A DNA stretch of 6,457 bases, from IMG/VR virus record IMGVR_UViG_2563366830_000009. One strand, 5' to 3'. Below, piece after piece: positions 1 to 6,457 of this stretch (position 1 is the stretch's first letter; every line of letters starts with the position of its first letter). Below the pieces are notes generated by a model. That model was not told where the DNA came from, did not search any database, and saw nothing but the letters and a program-made list of their open reading frames with translations. The DNA comes from a virus (lineage: Duplodnaviria > Heunggongvirae > Uroviricota > Caudoviricetes). The position numbers and the translations under genes were made by a program.

Positions 1-224
1 CCGCCGCCCGGGCGGGAATCCGCAGAACGCCCACCGCAGCGTGAGCCGTCAGCAGCAGTGTCGCTGTCGTGCTGACAACGACCGGCAAAGGCCTGAGTTG
101 ACGCTACCAGAGACAACAAAACGAACAGTGCAGCAAATGCTTTTTTCATTGTGACATTTCCATCTATAAGCCACCTCAATGTGGCGTCAATGAGTGTAGC
201 ACTGACTTTTGTTTCGTCCATAAA
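1..224. repeat. Direct repeat copy 1 (about 224 bp, 2 mismatches to copy 2 at 1176-1399); may extend left of the window
   Basis: Read directly: positions 1-224 align with 1176-1399 at offset 1175, differing only at 185 (c vs t) and 215 (t vs c). Contains the perfect palindrome CCCGCCCGGGCGGG (3-16). Confidence 0.9.
163..190 (-). promoter_or_regulatory. Sigma70-like promoter inside repeat copy 1 (-35 TTGACG, -10 TATAGA, 16-nt spacer)
   Basis: Minus-strand reading shows a -35 hexamer at 190-185 and -10 at 168-163. The single repeat mismatch at 185 falls in the -35 (TTGACG here, consensus TTGACA in copy 2). Confidence 0.4.
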
Positions 225-230
225 AAACTA

Positions 231-743
231 CTATGCAGGCTTTTTGGATTTGTACGAATAATCCCACGGATAAACATTTCTACTAAGTGGAGCTGTATTC
301 GTTCGTTCATGAAATAATTTTGTGAAATTCAATACGGAATCCATCCAAACTTTTGCGTTAGCTTTGGTGTGTGCGGGCGGGTCCCAATAAGCTAGTAAGG
401 CTGCATCTCTTATTTCATTGACTGCATATATGAGATATGCGTTACTGGTTGGTTTTGGCCTGTAATTTCCTTGTTCATCAATCAATCCATATGACCACTC
501 ATCCCAACACTGTTCAGTACATGAGTATGAATATGATGCATATTCACCAATATTGACATGAACCTTTCTGAGATGGAAGCCTAATACTTCGTCTGGTCTT
601 TCAAAAAGAGTATCTTTTCCCAGATCAGGATGATGACCATGACGCCAGTGTTGTTTAAAAGCATCTTTTAGCGAAATCAGAAAGTCATCAGTTTTAAACT
701 CACCAGTAGGTATAACCTTCCCGCTATACTCACTCAAAAACAT
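231..743 (-). CDS. YafO-family-like type II toxin (170 aa), putative ribosome-dependent mRNA interferase
   Basis: Good RBS on minus strand (AAGGAAGAGG about 6 nt before ATG at 743). Start overlaps the upstream ORF stop by 14 nt (730-743). Segments LFERPDEVLGFHLRKVHV and TSNAYLIYAVNEIRDAALLAYWDPPAH resemble my recollection of E. coli YafO (FERVAHIHL... and TNDEAHLVYCQG...WLLIAILKPEPH); not search-verified. Confidence 0.5.
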   Translation of the reverse strand: MFLSEYSGKVIPTGEFKTDDFLISLKDAFKQHWRHGHHPDLGKDTLFERPDEVLGFHLRKVHVNIGEYASYSYSCTEQCWDEWSYGLIDEQGNYRPKPTSNAYLIYAVNEIRDAALLAYWDPPAHTKANAKVWMDSVLNFTKLFHERTNTAPLSRNVYPWDYSYKSKKPA

Positions 744-1056
744 CGAATTCCTCTTCCTTCATATGCGTTTCTAATGAGTTAAGCTGGCGGAAAGATATCT
801 CTTTTGATTCTGCAGATGAGAGCTTTTTTATCCGCTTGATATTCTTTGTGATAGGAATAGACATTGTATGCACATCAGCGGATGCTCTTGGCTTTGTGCT
901 GATAAAAATATGGCGCAATGCCGCATTTTCACTATTGAACGAGCCAATAGCTGATTTACGTGCTACAACCTTACCAGTAAAAATACGACTCTTGCTACGC
1001 TTTGCATGAGTTCCGCTTCTTACCGGACCTCTCATCACGAATCCAAGTTTTGTCAT
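730..1056 (-). CDS. Hypothetical basic protein (108 aa), first gene of the module; candidate antitoxin or autoregulator, not YafN/Phd-like
   Basis: Strong RBS (GGAGA, 6-nt spacing) before ATG at 1056. Translationally coupled to the YafO-like ORF. Operator palindrome at 1099-1113 lies about 45 nt upstream. Very basic N-terminal half (GTHAKRSKSRIFTGKVVARKS). Confidence 0.5.
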   Translation of the reverse strand: MTKLGFVMRGPVRSGTHAKRSKSRIFTGKVVARKSAIGSFNSENAALRHIFISTKPRASADVHTMSIPITKNIKRIKKLSSAESKEISFRQLNSLETHMKEEEFDVFE

Positions 1057-1098
1057 CTTTAATCTCCGGTAAGTTACAGGTATAAAATAAAAACAGGT

Positions 1099-1113
1099 TT
1101 ACCTTTAAGGTAA
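1099..1113. promoter_or_regulatory. Operator-like perfect palindrome TTACCTTTAAGGTAA (site 1), overlapping a -10-like hexamer of a minus-strand promoter
   Basis: Minus strand reads TTGCAG(1141-1136)-17 nt-TACTAT(1118-1113) running into the palindrome. The identical 16-mer TTACCTTTAAGGTAAT recurs at 3921-3936. Confidence 0.55.
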
Positions 1114-1156
1114 TAGTACGCTATTCACCCCCGGTCTGCAATCTGTACAGAATTAT

Positions 1157-1324
1157 TTAAAGGCACATCCCTGTGCCGCCGCCCGGGCGGGAATCCGCAG
1201 AACGCCCACCGCAGCGTGAGCCGTCAGCAGCAGTGTCGCTGTCGTGCTGACAACGACCGGCAAAGGCCTGAGTTGACGCTACCAGAGACAACAAAACGAA
1301 CAGTGCAGCAAATGCTTTTTTCAT
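1157..1324 (-). CDS. Short ORF (55 aa) with a canonical Sec-type signal peptide (MKKAFAALFVLLSLVASTQAFA) and a Cys/Gly/Arg-rich tail; could be a small secreted peptide, a truncated gene 5' end, or a non-coding leader
   Basis: ATG at 1324-1322, stop at 1159-1157. The N-terminus has textbook n/h/c signal-peptide organisation, but the C-terminal 30 codons are read through GC-rich palindromes and there is no SD. An identical N-terminal coding segment in copy 1 (from ATG 149-147) runs off the left edge. Confidence 0.25.
   Translation of the reverse strand: MKKAFAALFVLLSLVASTQAFAGRCQHDSDTAADGSRCGGRSADSRPGGGTGMCL
1162..1177. other. Junction hairpin GGCACATCCCTGTGCC (6-bp stem, 4-nt loop) followed on the minus strand by a T/A-rich tract; module-boundary motif, possible weak terminator
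   Basis: The 24-bp motif aGGCACATCCnTGTGCCGCCGC recurs at 2315-2338 immediately after the 244-aa gene stop. Flanking promoter regions (ATAATT...TTGCAG) are also homologous. Confidence 0.4.
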
Positions 1325-1399
1325 TGTGACATTTCCATCTATAAGCCACCTCAATGTGGTGTCAATGAGTGTAGCACTGACTTTTGTTTCGTCCACAAA
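1176..1399. repeat. Direct repeat copy 2, about 99 percent identical to 1-224
   Basis: Same alignment as copy 1. Left boundary falls inside the hairpin motif GGCACATCCCTGTGCC (1162-1177); right boundary is the A-run before the terminator at 1403-1417. Confidence 0.9.
1338..1365 (-). promoter_or_regulatory. Sigma70-like promoter inside repeat copy 2 (-35 TTGACA consensus, 16-nt spacer, -10 TATAGA)
   Basis: Minus strand reads cactcaTTGACAccacattgaggtggctTATAGAtggaaatgtcacaATG. Perfect -35 and 4/6 -10; the ATG follows about 15 nt later with no clear Shine-Dalgarno. Confidence 0.45.
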
Positions 1400-1425
1400 A
1401 AAGCCCGCAGCGCGGGCTTACTTTT
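1397..1425. terminator. Rho-independent, bidirectional-type terminator (GCCCGC-AGC-GCGGGC flanked by an A-run and a T-rich run), terminating the minus-strand 182-aa gene
   Basis: Perfect 6-bp GC stem at 1403-1408/1412-1417. On the minus strand it is followed by TTTTTT (complement of 1397-1402) directly after the stop codon at 1418-1420. Confidence 0.7.
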
Positions 1426-1966
1426 CTTCAGGTTTGTTGTCTTCAGATTTCTTCTTGATGCTTGGTTTTTGTCTAAGAACGAAAATACCAGCCACTGCAA
1501 CAACTGTACCGATCACTGTGCCAGCTAGAACTTCATGACCTGTTAAACCTAATAATGTTGCACAAGCTACTGTAAAAATAGTTGCACTCAGGCCAAACCA
1601 CTGCCCACGTTTATCTCTATTAATAGCCCCGTCAAGTGCCTTTTCCTCCATTTTCTGGCGGTGAGCAAACTCCTTCTCCGTCAGCTGGAAGATGCGTTCG
1701 GGGGCATCAGGTAAAATATCCTGATACCCGCGAAGCAGATAGGGGGGAGGAAGCGGACCCTGAAACGCATGGTGAGCGACAACTATCTCCTGAATTTCAG
1801 GGCGATCAAGAACTCTTGTGAAGGCATCTGGGTGTTGAATGATCTCGTTACTTAGCCCTTCCTCAACTTCCTCGAACTCAGTTTCTTCGTTATCACTTGG
1901 TTGCCCAATAGATTTTTGCATATTTGTCGAAGGACATTCCTTTAGCTTCTGGTTTTCCTCTTGCAT
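1418..1966 (-). CDS. DUF2335 (COG5346)-like membrane protein, 182 aa, acidic N-terminal region and two C-terminal TM helices
   Basis: Motif PLPPPYLLRGYQDILPDAPERIFQLTEKEFAHRQ...RGQWFG then two hydrophobic helices matches my recollection of the DUF2335 family (unverified). The true start may be the internal Met at 1921; the long ORF overlaps the upstream gene by 74 nt. Confidence 0.55.
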   Translation of the reverse strand: MQEENQKLKECPSTNMQKSIGQPSDNEETEFEEVEEGLSNEIIQHPDAFTRVLDRPEIQEIVVAHHAFQGPLPPPYLLRGYQDILPDAPERIFQLTEKEFAHRQKMEEKALDGAINRDKRGQWFGLSATIFTVACATLLGLTGHEVLAGTVIGTVVAVAGIFVLRQKPSIKKKSEDNKPEEK

Positions 1967-2219
1967 TTGAGTTTTTCCCTGTCACTATTGCCCATTTTCC
2001 GCCAGCAGGCGCTGCAATTTTTTTTCCGTTCTTTACTATATATTCAGCATAAACACGATTTTCTGACCGTCTGAGATCGTCTCCGACCATATTCATGTCT
2101 CTTGATATAACTTTGACGACAGAGTCTCGGTTTAAAGCCTTGGCATAGTTGGAGCCAGGAACGATACCCAAAGGGGTGCCAGACTCTATAGCCAGCTCCT
2201 TGACATATCTTCTGCTCAT
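1893..2219 (-). CDS. Hypothetical protein, about 108 aa (MSRRYVKELAIESG...), first gene of the second module
   Basis: The track ORF begins with TTG at 2234, but the ATG at 2219-2217 is preceded by GAGGT (4-nt spacing). Operator-like site 2 lies 22 nt upstream. Overlaps or couples with the DUF2335-like gene. Confidence 0.5.
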   Translation of the reverse strand: MSRRYVKELAIESGTPLGIVPGSNYAKALNRDSVVKVISRDMNMVGDDLRRSENRVYAEYIVKNGKKIAAPAGGKWAIVTGKNSNARGKPEAKGMSFDKYAKIYWATK

Positions 2220-2240
2220 ATGAACCTCAACCAATCGACT

Positions 2241-2316: not shown

Positions 2317-2332
2317 GGCACATCCATGTGCC
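2317..2332. other. Junction hairpin GGCACATCCATGTGCC immediately after the ORF6N gene stop; second copy of the module-boundary motif, possible weak terminator
   Basis: 22 of 24 bases match 1160-1183. The stop codon of the 244-aa gene is at 2341-2343. Confidence 0.4.
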
Positions 2333-2340
2333 GCCGCTCG

Positions 2341-3060
2341 TCAGAAGAACCCTGCCTTGTCGTTGATGTACTCCGCGTGGGTCTGGATATCACGCAGGCA
2401 TTTGCTCACACCGACGATGTAGCAGAACATGGTGGTCAGCTCCGCCGCCGCGCCCGATACGTCATGCCCGTCTTCCTGTAACTGGTTCAGCAAATTCATC
2501 AGCAGTGAGTTCTCCGTCAGGCCGAGAACACCAGACGGCGAGTGAATCAGGCTGCGGTAGCCGGGCTTCAGTGGGGCGCTGTATTCTTTTTTGTCTTCCA
2601 GCTTGATCGCCTCCATAATGGCGGGCATGAATTTTTCAATTACCTGAGTGGCCTTTGATAAATCAGCTCCACCTGAGAGACGAACATCTCCACTGACATT
2701 TGCGGGTTTTCTGTCGAAGTAGCAATCTTCCAGTTTTTCGAAGACCTCCCACGCTTTTTCAGTCTCAAGAATTTTCGCATGTCGTGCTGCACCGCGAGCG
2801 GTCCATAAGAAAAGATGACTTACTTTTGGTGCAATATTAAGCAAACCTCTTTGAGAGGACTCGTTCTTAAATGCTCGTAATTCTTCGCCTATCAGCTTGA
2901 AACAATGTTTTCCCTCAATGAATCGATCTGCATTTCGTTGATAGTTTTGACGAATCAGTTTGGGTTCTGTGTCATACAAATCAGCAAGCATTTCTGTAGT
3001 CATTACAGGGATGTTGCAATGAGTTGTTATCGGCAACTTATCAATAGCTATATTACGCAT
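2341..3060 (-). CDS. ORF6N-domain (KilA-N superfamily) protein, often annotated as phage antirepressor-like; N-terminal ORF6N domain plus an uncharacterised C-terminal domain of about 130 aa
   Basis: N-terminal region (VMTTEMLADLYDTEPKLIRQNYQRNADRFIEGKHCFKLIGEE...LWTARGAARHAKILETEKA) fits the ORF6N consensus as I recall it (VMLD-DLA-LY...RN-RFP-F-L-EE). The track start is 3075, but GGAGG with 8-nt spacing favours ATG at 3060-3058. That start overlaps the upstream gene stop (3053-3055) in the sequence ATGCGTAA. Confidence 0.6.
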   Translation of the reverse strand: MRNIAIDKLPITTHCNIPVMTTEMLADLYDTEPKLIRQNYQRNADRFIEGKHCFKLIGEELRAFKNESSQRGLLNIAPKVSHLFLWTARGAARHAKILETEKAWEVFEKLEDCYFDRKPANVSGDVRLSGGADLSKATQVIEKFMPAIMEAIKLEDKKEYSAPLKPGYRSLIHSPSGVLGLTENSLLMNLLNQLQEDGHDVSGAAAELTTMFCYIVGVSKCLRDIQTHAEYINDKAGFF

Positions 3061-3559
3061 TTTCATTGCCTCCATCTTTCACGACGAAATAGCAATTATC
3101 TTTATAATCTAACTGGATGAACTTTATGTTTTCAGGGAGTTTTACAGAAAGAGTTTTTGCACAAGCAAAACCAAAATCTGCGCCAGAAGCATCCATATAC
3201 CTTAATAATTGTTTTAATGCTGAAGGAGAAAAAGTATCTACCTTCACCTCAACAGGGTAACCATCTTTTGTTTTTAGGTCTGGTTGACCTGGTCCACCAA
3301 GTATTTCAGCGTTAAGGTATTTTGCTATTTCTGGATAAGCGTTGTATTCAGAGCGTAGTTTTGCCTTGTTATCGACTGCTAGTTGCATAAGATGATCAAA
3401 CAAATTGGTATCTAAATCTGCCCCTTCATCCCACATTCTATTTCTACAGCTAATCAATTCACTGACCAGTGGTGCACTTTCTTGCCTTAGCATAAGAAGG
3501 AGTGGAGAATTAGAAATTAACCAATACAGATCGTCGTTTGAGATTTTTTGGCCTGGCAT
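3053..3559 (-). CDS. Hypothetical protein (168 aa), AT-rich, translationally coupled to the ORF6N gene
   Basis: RBS GAGGT about 7 nt before ATG at 3559. Overlaps the downstream gene by 8 nt. No recognisable domain by eye. Confidence 0.5.
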   Translation of the reverse strand: MPGQKISNDDLYWLISNSPLLLMLRQESAPLVSELISCRNRMWDEGADLDTNLFDHLMQLAVDNKAKLRSEYNAYPEIAKYLNAEILGGPGQPDLKTKDGYPVEVKVDTFSPSALKQLLRYMDASGADFGFACAKTLSVKLPENIKFIQLDYKDNCYFVVKDGGNENA

Positions 3560-3835
3560 AGCGATACCTCTACTAGTAAGTTACCTACCACCGCAACGCC
3601 AATTGCTGGTGGTGAACTGGACAAGGTTGGCGTACCGGCCTAGTAGGTACCGGCGCACCTTTCGGTGCCCCTGCCCAGCCCACCATAATTCGGATATGAC
3701 TGTGCTATACGCATAAAAAAACCACGTCTGGCGTGGTATGCGCCTACTAGTAATCCGGGACGCCAATCCCGGCACTGGATTTTGCCAGTGCCCGATTACT
3801 ATGGCACAAGAGGAGTGCGATGTAAATTTACCGAA
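3560..3835 (-). ncRNA. Candidate structured RNA: either an sRNA of about 120 nt (roughly 3835 to 3714) or a long attenuator-type 5' leader of the 168-aa/ORF6N operon
   Basis: Multiple nested stem-loops are visible: an outer stem AGTAATC/GATTACT (3748-3754 with 3794-3800) enclosing hairpins CCGGGA-CGCCAA-TCCCGG and CACTGG-ATTTTG-CCAGTG; GCACC-TTTC-GGTGC; ACCACC...GGTGGT. A promoter with overlapping operator sits upstream and the terminator is at 3714-3737. No ATG-initiated ORF in this minus-strand stretch. Confidence 0.3.
3714..3737 (-). terminator. Intrinsic terminator-like hairpin on the minus strand (ACCACG-CCAGA-CGTGGT followed by U6-7) inside the long region upstream of the 168-aa gene
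   Basis: Plus strand shows aaaaaaACCACGtctggCGTGGT; on the minus strand the 6-bp stem is followed by a T-run. It lies about 155 nt upstream of the 168-aa start codon. Confidence 0.5.
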
Positions 3836-3871
3836 AAGGTAATGATAAACGCTAAGAAATATTAAAATCAA
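3828..3871 (-). promoter_or_regulatory. Minus-strand promoter (-35 TTGATT 3871-3866, 18-nt spacer, -10 TATCAT 3847-3842) overlapping operator-like site 3, TTACCGAAAAGGTAA (3828-3842)
   Basis: Minus strand reads TTGATTttaatatttcttagcgttTATCATTACCTTTTCGGTAA. The arrangement of a -10 hexamer running into the TTACC half-site is the same as at site 1 (TACTATTACC). Confidence 0.4.
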
Positions 3872-3920: not shown

Positions 3921-3935
3921 TTACCTTTAAGGTAA
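3921..3935. promoter_or_regulatory. Operator-like site 4, TTACCTTTAAGGTAA, identical to site 1 and 21 nt upstream of the 175-aa gene start
   Basis: Perfect palindrome; the 16-mer TTACCTTTAAGGTAAT matches 1099-1114. It is followed by tgtGAGGAaaagcaATG (RBS and start at 3956). Confidence 0.5.
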
Positions 3936-3955: not shown

Positions 3956-4483
3956 ATGGAAGTTTTCTTAATCATCGTCGGCATCGTGATTATTAATTTT
4001 GTTTTTTTATTTATTGCAAAAAAACAAAAAAGTAACGATATGCATGTTTCTACAACTGATGATCTTACCTTTGTAGAGCATGCACTGAATGTATCAGGAT
4101 ATAAACTCACTCCATACGGAGCTGGTGTATCACTCATGTCTTTAAGTAACGGTTTTTCAAAAGAAGAAACATTTTCACATATAGCTTTGATGGCTCTTTC
4201 TCAACACGCCAAAGTCGCAGGTAGTGACGCAATTGAGCTTAGTAAAGTTAGCATTCGTGCGATGTCGATAGCTGAAAACTTAACTAAATTATTCAGGAAA
4301 GGTCTTATTCGATCAGAAATATATAAAAATGATTTGAATGCTATCATGGCTGTCAGCACAATTAATGAAAACCAAGAGGATTGGATTTCCATAGTTCTGG
4401 AAAGCAATAGCACATCTAACAAGGATACTATTGCTTTGCCGATAAGTGCAGAAGCTTCTTTAGAAGCCATAAACAGCCATTGA
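3956..4483 (+). CDS. Hypothetical single-pass membrane protein (175 aa), AT-rich; N-terminal TM helix then a soluble domain
   Basis: RBS GAGGA 8 nt before ATG. The N-terminus MEVFLIIVGIVIINFVFLFIAKKQK is a clear TM segment with a positive patch after it. Only plus-strand gene in the window; convergent with the 618-aa gene. Confidence 0.5.
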   Translation: MEVFLIIVGIVIINFVFLFIAKKQKSNDMHVSTTDDLTFVEHALNVSGYKLTPYGAGVSLMSLSNGFSKEETFSHIALMALSQHAKVAGSDAIELSKVSIRAMSIAENLTKLFRKGLIRSEIYKNDLNAIMAVSTINENQEDWISIVLESNSTSNKDTIALPISAEASLEAINSH

Positions 4484-4504: not shown

Positions 4505-6361
4505 TTAACGCATCACCGGATCCACCTGGTTTATTAGTGGCGCAATCCAGAACAGGTTATTGCCGGGGATCGTAGTTCGTACATTATGTACAATACGATC
4601 ACCGACATCACCATTCAACACACCAGAGGTCACATCAATGATGCTGTCCGCAAGACTGAATGACGGGCCGAACAAAGAACTCACAAAGCCACGGCTGGCA
4701 TAGCGTGACTGTGTGCCGGTGCCAAATAAAGCCCCCAGCCCAACAGCACCACCAGTAGCCTTTTCAGCCATGTTGTTATATTCCATCAATGGCCCAAGAA
4801 TACCGGATCTATCTATACCCTCAAGCACCAGCTTCTCTGGTGACCAGTCAACATCCTTCCCTTTCGATGCTTCTTTAAGCGCATAGACCAGTGAGCCAAG
4901 AGCAATCTGAAATGCAGTGCCATAATAAAACTGCGCAGTTCCTTCCTGTAACCCACCAAGTAGCGCACGGTTGTATGAAGCCGTTGTGAATGATTTAAAC
5001 TGAAATATCGTTCGCCCCCATGACGTACTCGCCCATAAAGGTGTGTCACCAATACCGGGGGTGATGATAGTGTTATTAACGTCTTTCAGAACCGCTGACT
5101 GGAATACTCCGGCAACGTACTGATCGTCCCATTTATCAAAGTTACCAATGTGCCATCCATCAATTACCTCACCATGTTTCTCGAACTCACTGCGAATACG
5201 CGCAGCCATATTGTCGTTGATACCGAGTTTTGCCAGGCGGCGTGCAGGAAATGCACCGGACAAAATACCGTCTGAAATAACCATTCCGTTCATGGATTTG
5301 TTTATGTCATTAAAGCGATCCATGAGTGTCAGCTTGCCGAAGGCATCAGTAATTCGCTCCATTCCGGCTTCGACTGCTGTTGTCCTGGAAGAGCTGTCAA
5401 CAAGATCACCAATTGCACGAGAGCGTGAATGCAGTACAGTTTCCAGTCCGATACCCATCTTCAACATCTCTTCTTTGCTGGCCTTAAATGCCGGTGATTG
5501 GGATATCTGAGAAGCATAGCCTTTCATGGTGTTACGGAAACCATTAACCATAACCCCTCTGGCCAGATCTGGAATAGCTGATACTGTCATTCCACCGAGT
5601 TTGGTCGTGAAGTTCACATCCCGCAGAAAAGCGCCAGCACGAACAAAAAACGAAGACGGATCATCAGGCATCCCATATGTACCAACAAGACGATCGCGTA
5701 ATGCTGTTATGTCTCTGAGATCATTTGCTCTTGATTTTGAAAGTCTGGACTGTTCTTTCCGTAATTCCTTTTCGTACTTTCGCATTAATGAATCGAGTTT
5801 ACCCTGAGGAACAACTTCACCATTGCTCTCATAACGTGCTTTCAGATTTGCCACACTTTCGTCATATTTCGCCTTTATTTTTTCAGGCACTTCCCGTAAC
5901 AGACTGTCATATTCGTCCTCAATTAATTGCAGACGCTCAGTCATAGTTCGTTTGCCAAATGTTCTCGTCAACTCAATTTCTGCTGCCGCTTCACGGATAT
6001 GACGTTGCAGCACGTAATTCACATCACTTTCAAGATAATCCCTGATAAGACTATCAGGAACATTTAATGTTCTTTCTTTCGTACTACCTGCGGCTTTTAC
6101 AGAAAATACGCTGACAAAATCCTGTGGAACCTTAGCACCAGTAATTTTATTAATTACGATATCTGCTGCAATTTCAGCATCCTCAGGAACCAGTGTTTTA
6201 TTTCCTCTCGACCACCAGTCAACCAAAATACGTCGAAATTTATCGCGTTCACTGATTATTTTTCCAACTTTATATATGCGTGGGAAATAGCTTGCCTGGC
6301 CTAATGCTTTCAGTTCTTCATCTGGCGGCAATAAACCAAGCTTTTGCATTTCAACTTTCAC
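4505..6361 (-). CDS. Large hypothetical protein (618 aa as tracked), charged/coiled-coil-like middle and Gly-rich hydrophobic C-terminal segment; possibly a phage virion or injection/tape-measure-like protein; 5' end abuts an IS element
   Basis: Long uninterrupted ORF. The tracked start at 6361 is GTG; the first ATG is at 6349-6347, with weak SD for both. The reading frame stays open upstream into the IS end at 6378 and to the window edge. No Walker A or HExxH motif seen. The family guess is weak. Confidence 0.6.
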   Translation of the reverse strand: MKVEMQKLGLLPPDEELKALGQASYFPRIYKVGKIISERDKFRRILVDWWSRGNKTLVPEDAEIAADIVINKITGAKVPQDFVSVFSVKAAGSTKERTLNVPDSLIRDYLESDVNYVLQRHIREAAAEIELTRTFGKRTMTERLQLIEDEYDSLLREVPEKIKAKYDESVANLKARYESNGEVVPQGKLDSLMRKYEKELRKEQSRLSKSRANDLRDITALRDRLVGTYGMPDDPSSFFVRAGAFLRDVNFTTKLGGMTVSAIPDLARGVMVNGFRNTMKGYASQISQSPAFKASKEEMLKMGIGLETVLHSRSRAIGDLVDSSSRTTAVEAGMERITDAFGKLTLMDRFNDINKSMNGMVISDGILSGAFPARRLAKLGINDNMAARIRSEFEKHGEVIDGWHIGNFDKWDDQYVAGVFQSAVLKDVNNTIITPGIGDTPLWASTSWGRTIFQFKSFTTASYNRALLGGLQEGTAQFYYGTAFQIALGSLVYALKEASKGKDVDWSPEKLVLEGIDRSGILGPLMEYNNMAEKATGGAVGLGALFGTGTQSRYASRGFVSSLFGPSFSLADSIIDVTSGVLNGDVGDRIVHNVRTTIPGNNLFWIAPLINQVDPVMR

Positions 6362-6377
6362 CCGATTTAATACAGTT

Positions 6378-6457
6378 TGAACCGCCCCGGGAATCCTGGA
6401 GACTAAACTTCCTGAGAAAGAGGTAAACAGGATGACTAAAAATACTCGTTTTTCCCC
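6378..6457 (+). mobile_element. Left end of an IS3-family insertion sequence (IS629/IS1203-like): terminal inverted repeat starting TGAACCGCCCCGGG plus the first codons of orfA (MTKNTRFS from ATG 6432)
   Basis: The sequence TGAACCGCCCCGGGAATCCTGGAGACTAAACTTCCTGAGAAAGAGGTAAACAGGATGACTAAAAATACTCG matches my memory of the IS629-type left end and OrfA N-terminus (MTKNTRFSPEVRQRA...). The element continues beyond the window. Confidence 0.65.

Follow-up and report, generated by a model that had tools for sequence, protein, structure and literature searches.

Two copies of a small prophage gene in Escherichia coli MS 196-1 and their probable origin in stacked cargo modules

Introduction

Hendrix and colleagues reportedly defined morons, for lambdoid phages, as autonomous units of promoter, gene and terminator within prophage genomes. 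Conserved genes of temperate phages and of satellites, P2 and P4 for example, can enclose hotspots of variable cargo or defence genes, and linker or boundary sequences have been proposed for lambdoid mosaicism. Here we describe a stretch of 6,457 nucleotides (nt) of viral DNA (IMG/VR record IMGVR_UViG_2563366830_000009; the whole stretch is hereafter the window), which is a 100% match to the chromosome of Escherichia coli MS 196-1 (NZ_CP146681.1) and in which two near-identical direct repeats flank a two-gene YafO-like module on the minus strand. An earlier interpretation from the letters alone (the sequence-only reading) took the repeat as possibly the relic 5' end of a larger secreted-protein gene, now a portable promoter. 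Our analysis indicates that each repeat copy is very probably a complete minus-strand small gene, comprising an upstream control region, a 5' hairpin, a weak ribosome-binding site and an open reading frame (ORF). Its doubling is in all likelihood the result of two alternative cargo modules being stacked by recombination, that is, of ordinary phage mosaicism and not of a relic promoter. The locus would then be a rare structural variant that duplicates an already annotated small gene, and its repeats would reveal neither a new promoter element nor a decayed gene.

The repeat unit

Base-by-base comparison placed the direct repeat at 1-227 and 1176-1402, with a start-to-start spacing of 1175 nt. 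The pair of copies and their two mismatches around the YafO-like module had been recognized correctly, but the unit is 227 nt long, not 224. Similarity between the copies ends at 227/1402, and copy 1 is cut by the left window edge, continuing 12 nt beyond it. Guanine-cytosine (GC) content is 52.9% in the repeat and 39.5% in the enclosed 948 bp. Exactly two positions differ: 185 is C where 1360 is T, and 221 is T where 1396 is C.

The unit was found in 430 of 5,426 complete E. coli genomes, at a median of one copy and a maximum of three, always under an annotated coding sequence (CDS); each of 91 IMG/VR contigs carried one copy. A high-copy intergenic repeat similar to repetitive extragenic palindromic (REP) sequences, enterobacterial repetitive intergenic consensus (ERIC) sequences or miniature inverted-repeat transposable elements (MITEs) was ruled out by the median of one place per genome and the constant overlap with a CDS.

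The small gene

Both copies are annotated as CDSs, of 53 and 55 amino acids (aa). Copy 1, extended by the 12 nt past the window edge, encodes the protein MKKAFAALFVLLSLVASTQAFAGRCQHDSDTAADGSRCGGRSADSRPGGGGIR and stops after 53 codons without running into a larger gene. Copy 2 encodes 55 aa and is the same as copy 1 through GG, after which the C-terminus changes from GGGGIR to GGTGMCL. The 53-aa protein aligned end to end with PHROG 14503 (E = 2.3e-40, residues 1-53 on profile positions 1-53 of 53), a family that the PHROGs database places in the category "moron, auxiliary metabolic gene and host takeover". It is also 100% identical to gp43 of phage TL-2011b, annotated as "putative transmembrane anchored protein" (YP_007001994.1). 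Homologues of 47-55 aa were found in Escherichia, Shigella, Klebsiella, Citrobacter, Cronobacter, Franconibacter, Salmonella, Pectobacterium and Dickeya.

Alignment of 25 homologues from at least eight genera gave 16 invariant columns, both cysteines among them, all within the post-signal segment (C25, D30, A32, G35-C38, G40-G49). The N-terminal hydrophobic stretch is variable, while the Sec pattern (MKK, a hydrophobic run, A-x-A) is kept across homologues and reads MKK / AFAALFVLLSLVAS / TQAFA-G here; this fits the suggested Sec-type signal peptide at the start of the ORF. Beyond it lies a near-invariant core, CQHDxDTAADGSRCGGRSADSRPGG (general form C-x4-D-x-A-x-DGSRCG-x-R-x-A-x-x-RPGG), which both copies carry, copy 2 departing only past the GG. 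Codon analysis of the core in 11 Enterobacterales genes gave a synonymous divergence (pS) of 0.72 and a replacement divergence (pN) of 0.115, a ratio of 0.16. Synonymous change is near saturation with few replacements, and the mature core is under purifying selection.

These observations bear on the proposal that a larger secreted-protein gene left the unit behind as its relic 5' end, with a portable consensus promoter and an ORF that is meaningless read-through of palindromes. The 3' part of the ORF does hold palindromes, CCGCCCGGGCGG and, in copy 2, GGCACAGGGATGTGCC. However, the ORF is whole at 53 aa in its native form, and no longer ancestor was found among the Enterobacterales homologues, in which longer predictions are upstream-start extensions. 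The post-signal region is the most conserved part, and its GC-rich stretch consists of codons for PGGGG and neighbouring residues, that is, of coding sequence under selection. Together with the promoter evidence below, this makes a relic with a portable promoter highly improbable.

The upstream control region

In the 91 viral contigs the unit always starts at the T-run of a bidirectional intrinsic terminator, whichever gene precedes it. With a terminator directly upstream, the small gene should depend on a promoter of its own in the 78 nt that precede the ATG, a need that the relic proposal shares. Alignment of the control region across 15 genera revealed a TAnnnT hexamer (T, A and T invariant) about 45 nt upstream of the ATG, followed by a hairpin and then by a GGA/AGGA Shine-Dalgarno-like element. 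The hairpin, GCCACATTGAGGTGGC in E. coli, covaries, with compensatory double changes in three of its five pairs. The E. coli version of the hexamer is TACACT (193-198 / 1368-1373), with a TG-n extension and TGGACG at 16 nt. Transcription is predicted to start about 7 nt past TACACT, which would place the hairpin at the extreme 5' end of the mRNA.

The sequence-only reading had instead proposed a consensus promoter further downstream. Its elements are present in both copies, as TTGAC(G/A), 16 nt and TATAGA with the ATG 13 nt downstream, but TATAGA matches only four of six consensus positions, has no T at -7 and did not appear in the output of the promoter scan. In other genera its equivalents are TACACA, TATACA or TATTTA, and the -35 hexamer is likewise not kept outside E. 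coli. The proposed promoter also overlaps the covarying hairpin, and transcripts from it would begin beyond the sole Shine-Dalgarno-like GGA (1336-1334 in copy 2), leaving a leader of about 7 nt without a ribosome-binding site. From these patterns of conservation, we lean towards the upstream TACACT promoter over the TATAGA promoter.

The two mismatches fall in this region, only one of them, 185/1360, inside the proposed -35 hexamer, of which it is the last base; the divergence is thus not confined to the hexamer. The other, 221/1396, adjoins the conserved TGGACG on its 5' side and tracks the type of upstream module, being G on the gene strand after terminator-type modules and A after the YafO-like module. 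The 25-mer with gene-strand G at 185/1360 (TTGACG) was found in 91 IMG/VR contigs and the A version (TTGACA) in none; all other carriers of the 55-aa allele have G at 1360, and A occurs only in MS 196-1 and a related assembly, GCA_000408725.1. Because of these counts, and of the G in every other 55-aa allele, TTGACG is taken as ancestral and the TTGACA of copy 2 as a derived state seen only in the MS 196-1 lineage, opposite to the direction first suggested. Base 1360 lies near the start site predicted from TACACT and is also the first base of the conserved hairpin (1360-1345).

A derived, lineage-private G-to-A change that yields TTGACA raises the question of whether the duplication is adaptive, with copy 2 a stronger promoter for the downstream 108-aa/YafO-like operon. 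Downstream of the native copy lies GGCCGCGAAAGCGGCC, a terminator that is good for the convergent gene and weak on the small gene's own strand; it is lost from copy 2, where only a weak 6-bp hairpin and then TTTAAATAATT precede the leader of the YafO-like module. This loss would fit such a role, but just one base has changed, in one lineage, possibly without any effect on fitness. The substitution also costs the hairpin its closing G-C pair, lowering its stability from -7.0 to -4.7 kcal/mol, and the -10 element is still poor. Moreover, the module has its own leader and operator palindrome, as it does in single-module phages. We therefore consider an adaptive duplication unlikely.

Outside the window, a short way past its left edge, the native terminator is followed directly by a palindrome, GTGACATGTCAC, at 11958-11969 of the 30-kb surroundings of the window in MS 196-1 (L001). 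It is conserved in phages of E. coli, Klebsiella, Kluyvera and Buttiauxella (orthologous positions in loci L005, L010, L011 and L019) and absent after copy 2.

Junction and origin of the tandem

Two single-module prophages correspond to the parents of the tandem. TUM9975 has the order ORF6N antirepressor, 113-aa ORF, DUF2335, small gene, and MLI109 has ORF6N, leader, 108 aa, YafO-like, small gene. On the gene strand, MLI109 reads CGGGCGGCGGCACAGGGATGTGCC TTTAAATAATTCTGTACAG... after the ORF6N stop, and copy 2 of MS 196-1 reads ...CCCGGGCGGCGG, then exactly the leader of MLI109. The 3' end of copy 2 is thus joined, at CCGCCGCCCG, to a hairpin/operator leader that is normally found after the antirepressor gene. 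In alignment, the left flank of copy 2 is the post-ORF6N leader of MLI109 up to CCGCCGCCCG, and the right flank of each copy matches its own parent. A partial third copy, consisting of the left-flank hairpin only (GGCACATCCATGTGCC), lies at 2317-2332.

Because the parents share only CCGCCGCCCG at the switch point and BLAST matches to the leader side break off precisely at 1185, the parental sequences indicate that the tandem is an unequal, microhomology-mediated join of the small-gene 3' end to the leader of a second module. The join swaps the last five residues of the copy 2 peptide and removes its native terminator. Duplication or module insertion by homologous recombination had been suggested earlier. 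The repeats do bracket an exchangeable module and appear to be a product of recombination, but a role for them in driving the insertion is not supported, because copy 2 is fused on its left side to an unrelated leader through 10 nt of microhomology.

Among the 5,426 complete E. coli genomes the junction occurs once, in MS 196-1, and neither the exact fusion junction nor the TTGACA variant was found in IMG/VR. An apparent restriction of the junction to MS 196-1 was overturned by an exact-protein look-up in draft contigs, in which the 55-aa fusion protein is recorded on 38 contigs, with 50 blocks listed in the index. At least four arrangements contain the 55-aa allele, between them offering two alternative cargoes upstream of it and three downstream: (i) DUF2335, then 108 aa and the 170-aa YafO-like protein (this window and GCA_000408725.1); (ii) DUF2335, then 59 aa and a 181-aa YafO; (iii) the 170-aa YafO-like protein, then the 181-aa YafO; and (iv) DUF2335, then 69, 286 and 167 aa, without a second small gene. 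The junction is identical and followed by the same leader of about 65 nt in all four.

Rarity among complete genomes could point to an assembly artefact, in which the assembler merged two prophage variants into a chimera, and an older scaffold of the same arrangement (L163, from GCA_000408725.1) has an N-gap in copy 1. That scaffold nevertheless comes from an independent assembly and has the same order, the MS 196-1 chromosome has no other unit copy (both of its two places are at this locus), and the identical junction recurs in at least 24 contigs that differ in sample and in arrangement. An artefact can be all but dismissed.

The recurrence of one junction with several different cargoes, each module bearing the same hairpin leader and ending in the same small gene, gives the locus the look of an array. 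It could suggest that the YafO-like module and one repeat form a mobile cassette, moved by a dedicated site-specific or transposition mechanism, with the repeat as a duplicated target or attachment site in the manner of an integron. Yet the annotation shows no integrase anywhere in the 30-kb locus and no transposase or recombinase in this region; the only insertion sequences (IS), of the IS3 family, lie elsewhere. A target duplication of 227 bp would be far too long for transposition, the junction lies in microhomology within a coding sequence, and all 91 viral contigs have a single unit copy. The hairpin is a plain 6-bp stem plus an operator leader, although no search aimed at attC-type features was made. 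Conserved flanks and general recombination suffice for the pattern, and we hold a dedicated cassette mechanism to be very unlikely.

The most economical account has the junction form once, or on rare occasions, and then be shuffled by homologous recombination in the conserved flanks, namely the small gene and the leader. At 227 bp and 99% identity, the repeats would also be a plausible substrate for RecA-mediated deletion of the module.

Several points weigh against this account of a complete small gene doubled by module stacking. The two copies within the genome are 99.1% identical, compared with 95-99% between them and most orthologues (411 of 433 records); this greater likeness fits recent formation but also gene conversion. 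The shared junction would fit a single origin and equally repeated formation at the same microhomology. The downstream TTGACR-16-TATAGA could still fire in E. coli. As for the product, its status as a signal peptide-bearing protein is argued from sequence features and from an AlphaFold2 model (25 sequences) with a helix at residues 2-22. The model is confident for this signal helix only (mean predicted local distance difference test score, 65), and its mature part is of low confidence, so that no fold or function can be taken from it.

Table 1. Coordinates of the features of the window, with the small-gene copies, their control elements and the cargo modules (module A, upstream; module B, YafO-like).
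Feature	Position	Strand	Remarks
Small-gene copy 1 CDS	1-149	-	Native 53-aa allele WP_000708858.1; last 3 codons and stop in the 12 nt left of the window
Copy 1 control region	150-227	-	Candidate promoter, hairpin, Shine-Dalgarno-like element
Candidate promoter, copy 1	TGGACG 220-215; TG-n-TACACT 198-193	-	16 nt between the elements
Promoter of the sequence-only reading, copy 1	TTGACG 190-185; TATAGA 168-163; ATG 149-147	-	
5' hairpin GCCACATTGAGGTGGC	185-170 (copy 1); 1360-1345 (copy 2)	-	A variant at 1360 in copy 2
GGA, Shine-Dalgarno-like	161-159 (copy 1); 1336-1334 (copy 2)	-	
Module B, second gene: YafO-like protein, 170 aa	231-743	-	PGAP name YafO family toxin; PHROG 1651
Module B, first gene: 108-aa partner, putative antitoxin	730-1056	-	PHROG 5933; no Pfam match
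TTACC-N5-GGTAA palindrome, operator-like	1099-1113	.	In leader of module B
Conserved module leader	1114-1177	-	Common to many cargo types; includes hairpin GGCACAGGGATGTGCC (1177-1162), normally after antirepressor stop
Small-gene copy 2 CDS	1157-1324	-	55-aa fusion allele WP_001555164.1
Crossover point	1176-1185	.	10-nt microhomology CCGCCGCCCG, common to small-gene 3' end and sequence just after antirepressor stop
Copy 2 control region	1325-1402	-	Elements as in copy 1, plus the apparently derived G-to-A at 1360
Promoter of the sequence-only reading, copy 2	TTGACA 1365-1360; TATAGA 1343-1338; ATG 1324-1322	-	
Bidirectional intrinsic terminator	1401-1419	.	Strong; closes module A; marks upstream edge of repeat unit
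Module A: 113-aa ORF and DUF2335 membrane protein	1418-2234	-	113-aa ORF 1893-2234; DUF2335 protein 1418-1966
Third leader hairpin GGCACATGGATGTGCC	2317-2332	-	Native place, just after ORF6N antirepressor stop (2341-2343)
ORF6N-domain antirepressor	2341-3075	-	Upstream anchor of slot; Pfam PF10543, E 1e-18; PHROG 1760

The conserved peptide core

After cleavage, the product should be a two-cysteine periplasmic peptide of about 30 residues. Searches with the peptide, or with a profile of 27 diverse members, returned nothing usable from Pfam, NCBIfam, PADLOC or the sequences of the Protein Data Bank (PDB), and no paper turned up in a full-text search of the literature for its name in combination with "phage". 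The core itself is widespread. It was found at 57 loci of species-representative genomes, Rhizobiales, Cyanobacteria, Vibrio, Bacteriovorax and a myxobacterial metagenome-assembled genome among them, and a profile search of 1.84 billion representatives gave 468 clusters (50% identity) at E <= 1e-3. The stand-alone, predicted secreted form occurs in Rhizobiales, Cyanobacteria, Vibrio and others. Some of the clusters are longer proteins, with the core after a signal peptide or at the C-terminus just beyond a hydrophobic, presumed transmembrane, segment. Examples include the core followed by RNPDTDW, a hydrophobic segment and a conserved C-terminal domain, and the core after an SH3_3 domain, which was the one informative co-domain in a Pfam scan of the longer core-bearing proteins (in P0151). 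One candidate, P0102, was rejected as a false positive that matched on chitin-binding repeats. Gene neighbourhoods in seven non-enterobacterial genomes look heterogeneous.

Our best guess is that the peptide is a lysogen-expressed, envelope-directed moron. This guess, of a product acting on a conserved envelope component, fits the insulated transcription unit, the inferred export, the invariant two-cysteine core shared across phyla, and the fixed place beside an antirepressor switch and a toxin/exclusion cargo slot. More tentatively, we speculate that the core of about 25 residues is an undescribed and very widespread extracytoplasmic mini-domain, which Proteobacteria and Cyanobacteria would use both on its own, as a secreted peptide, and within membrane proteins, as their exported portion. 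Uetakevirus phages may have fixed it beside a swappable toxin/defence slot, and the 55-aa fusion may serve as a natural adaptor for stacking cargo modules. If this were true, a conserved envelope target would be implied, for example in superinfection exclusion or envelope signalling, and the 55-aa allele would let phages stack cargo. In any case, a by-product of the analysis is a family of tiny, predicted-secreted peptides that has a near-invariant core across phyla, lacks a Pfam model and is kept by phages beside their antirepressor switch.

The cargo slot

The conserved flanks delimit a slot in prophages similar to epsilon15 and phiV10 (Uetakevirus). The antirepressor gene and a hairpin/operator leader come first, then 0.7-1.2 kb of exchangeable cargo with a terminator behind it, and lastly the small gene and a bidirectional terminator. 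The small gene is the fixed last gene of this small variable slot, within a region similar to immI (isrK-C4-antirepressor). The MS 196-1 prophage holds two alternative modules in tandem (113-aa ORF and DUF2335; 108 aa and YafO-like). The proposed join would account for the two small-gene copies, of which the one nearer the antirepressor has the altered C-terminus (55 aa) and lacks the native terminator.

In 75 IMG/VR contigs, 740-1210 nt separate the leader hairpin from the small gene, and the DNA in between sorts into at least nine unrelated cargo clusters. Three YafO-like pairs are among the cargoes, as are a DUF4760 protein, two related proteins some 210 aa long, a pair of 72+125 aa, a membrane pair of 69+288 aa and the 113-aa ORF with DUF2335. 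No tested cargo protein matched PADLOC, and the 113-aa ORF had no Pfam match. The 170-aa YafO-like protein scored 19.7 bits against Pfam PF13957 (E = 9.5e-4), below the gathering threshold of 25, and its membership of the family is not established; an alternative 190-aa cargo in the same slot passes at 26.1 bits. A compact phage slot with defined boundaries and at least nine cargoes is a second by-product, which could be mined for small toxin or exclusion genes.

Nearly all cargo leaders contain the palindrome TTACC-N5-GGTAA, which looks like the operator of a repressor. Eight instances lie in the 30 kb of L001, against 0.05 expected: four in the window, at 1099-1113, 2241-2255, 3828-3842 and 3921-3935, and L001 10562, 10942, 24896 and 28103. 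Six of the eight are in leaders of this region, namely those of both cargo modules, of both isrK operons and of a 175-aa ORF.

The prophage and its immunity region

The 30-kb locus encodes terminase, portal, major capsid protein, a Bbp16-type cement protein and large internal virion proteins, then an endosialidase tailspike followed by holins and an endolysin. This gene order is that of podoviruses similar to epsilon15 and phiV10, and related phage records are classified as Uetakevirus. The immI-like region lies between the internal virion protein genes and the tailspike. Rfam models identified, on the minus strand, a C4 antisense RNA (3605-3690, 76.7 bits), isrK (3715-3791, 68.1 bits) and an a1/b1 target. 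Weak matches to a Trp leader and to Histone3 (E 0.8) were set aside as chance. The order after isrK/C4 on the minus strand is 168-aa ORF, ORF6N, 113-aa ORF and DUF2335, copy 2, 108 aa and YafO-like, copy 1, and a second isrK-C4-antirepressor (BRO-N) operon converges from the opposite side.

Two head-to-head isrK/C4 units are therefore present (window 3605-3804, minus strand; L001 10993-11175, plus strand), so that the P1/P7-type immI switch occurs twice, followed by the 168-aa ORF and ORF6N on one side and by BRO-N on the other. The a1/b1 target scored in the window copy only, just below the gathering score. The Prokaryotic Genome Annotation Pipeline (PGAP) labels 97 nt over the C4 RNA region (L001 15605-15701) as a frameshifted pseudogene, "Rha family phage regulatory protein", which is probably an annotation artefact over a structured RNA.

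Two inverted repeats flank the cargo region. One of 258 nt at 96% (L001 11661-11918 and 14339-14596; window 2339-2596) covers a shared C-terminal antirepressor domain, and one of 106 nt at 93% (L001 10931-11036 and 15748-15853; window 3748-3853) covers the isrK/operator region. With respect to the tailspike, the segment between the repeats is oriented differently in MS 196-1 and in MLI109, which suggests inversion by homologous recombination.

Divergent from the isrK/C4 operon is the 175-aa ORF (3956-4483, plus strand), with an N-terminal hydrophobic segment and the operator palindrome in front; it belongs to PHROG 21690, of unknown function, and sits at the position where P22 carries sieA/mnt. 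Beyond it, a 618-aa ORF (4505-6361, minus strand) is the C-terminal part of an internal virion protein of about 1,400 aa (PHROG 16310/342). The gene is broken by an IS3-family element, whose end and first-ORF start (MTKNTRFS...) lie at about 6378-6457, and a second IS3 copy in the same prophage splits a holin gene. Because these copies disrupt the internal virion protein gene and the holin gene, the prophage is probably defective.

Comparison with described systems

The nearest counterpart of the small gene is gp43 of TL-2011b. The protein is identical, and its gene occupies the same position, where it follows a YafO-family toxin gene and converges with an antirepressor; unlike this window, TL-2011b has a single copy. 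The gene resembles phage morons in lying between virion and lysis genes, with a terminator upstream, a bidirectional terminator downstream and a promoter-like region. It differs from them in that the small gene is the constant element here while the neighbouring cargo varies, and its expression from the prophage is a prediction.

The surrounding region is similar to the immI systems of P1/P7 (c4-icd-ant), P22 (mnt-arc-ant) and Gifsy-1 (isrK-anrP), in that the window has C4, isrK and an a1/b1 target, then antirepressors, between the internal virion genes and the tailspike. In contrast to those systems, two such operons converge here, with exchangeable cargo and the small gene between them, and a small secreted-peptide gene is no part of the described immI systems. 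Finally, as in the P2/P4 hotspots, conserved flanks (the hairpin/operator leader and the small gene) enclose at least nine unrelated cargoes, YafO-like pairs, DUF4760 and DUF2335 among them. Unlike those hotspots, the slot is very small at 0.7-1.2 kb, its tested cargo has no PADLOC match, and stacking would proceed through a fusion allele of a coding sequence.

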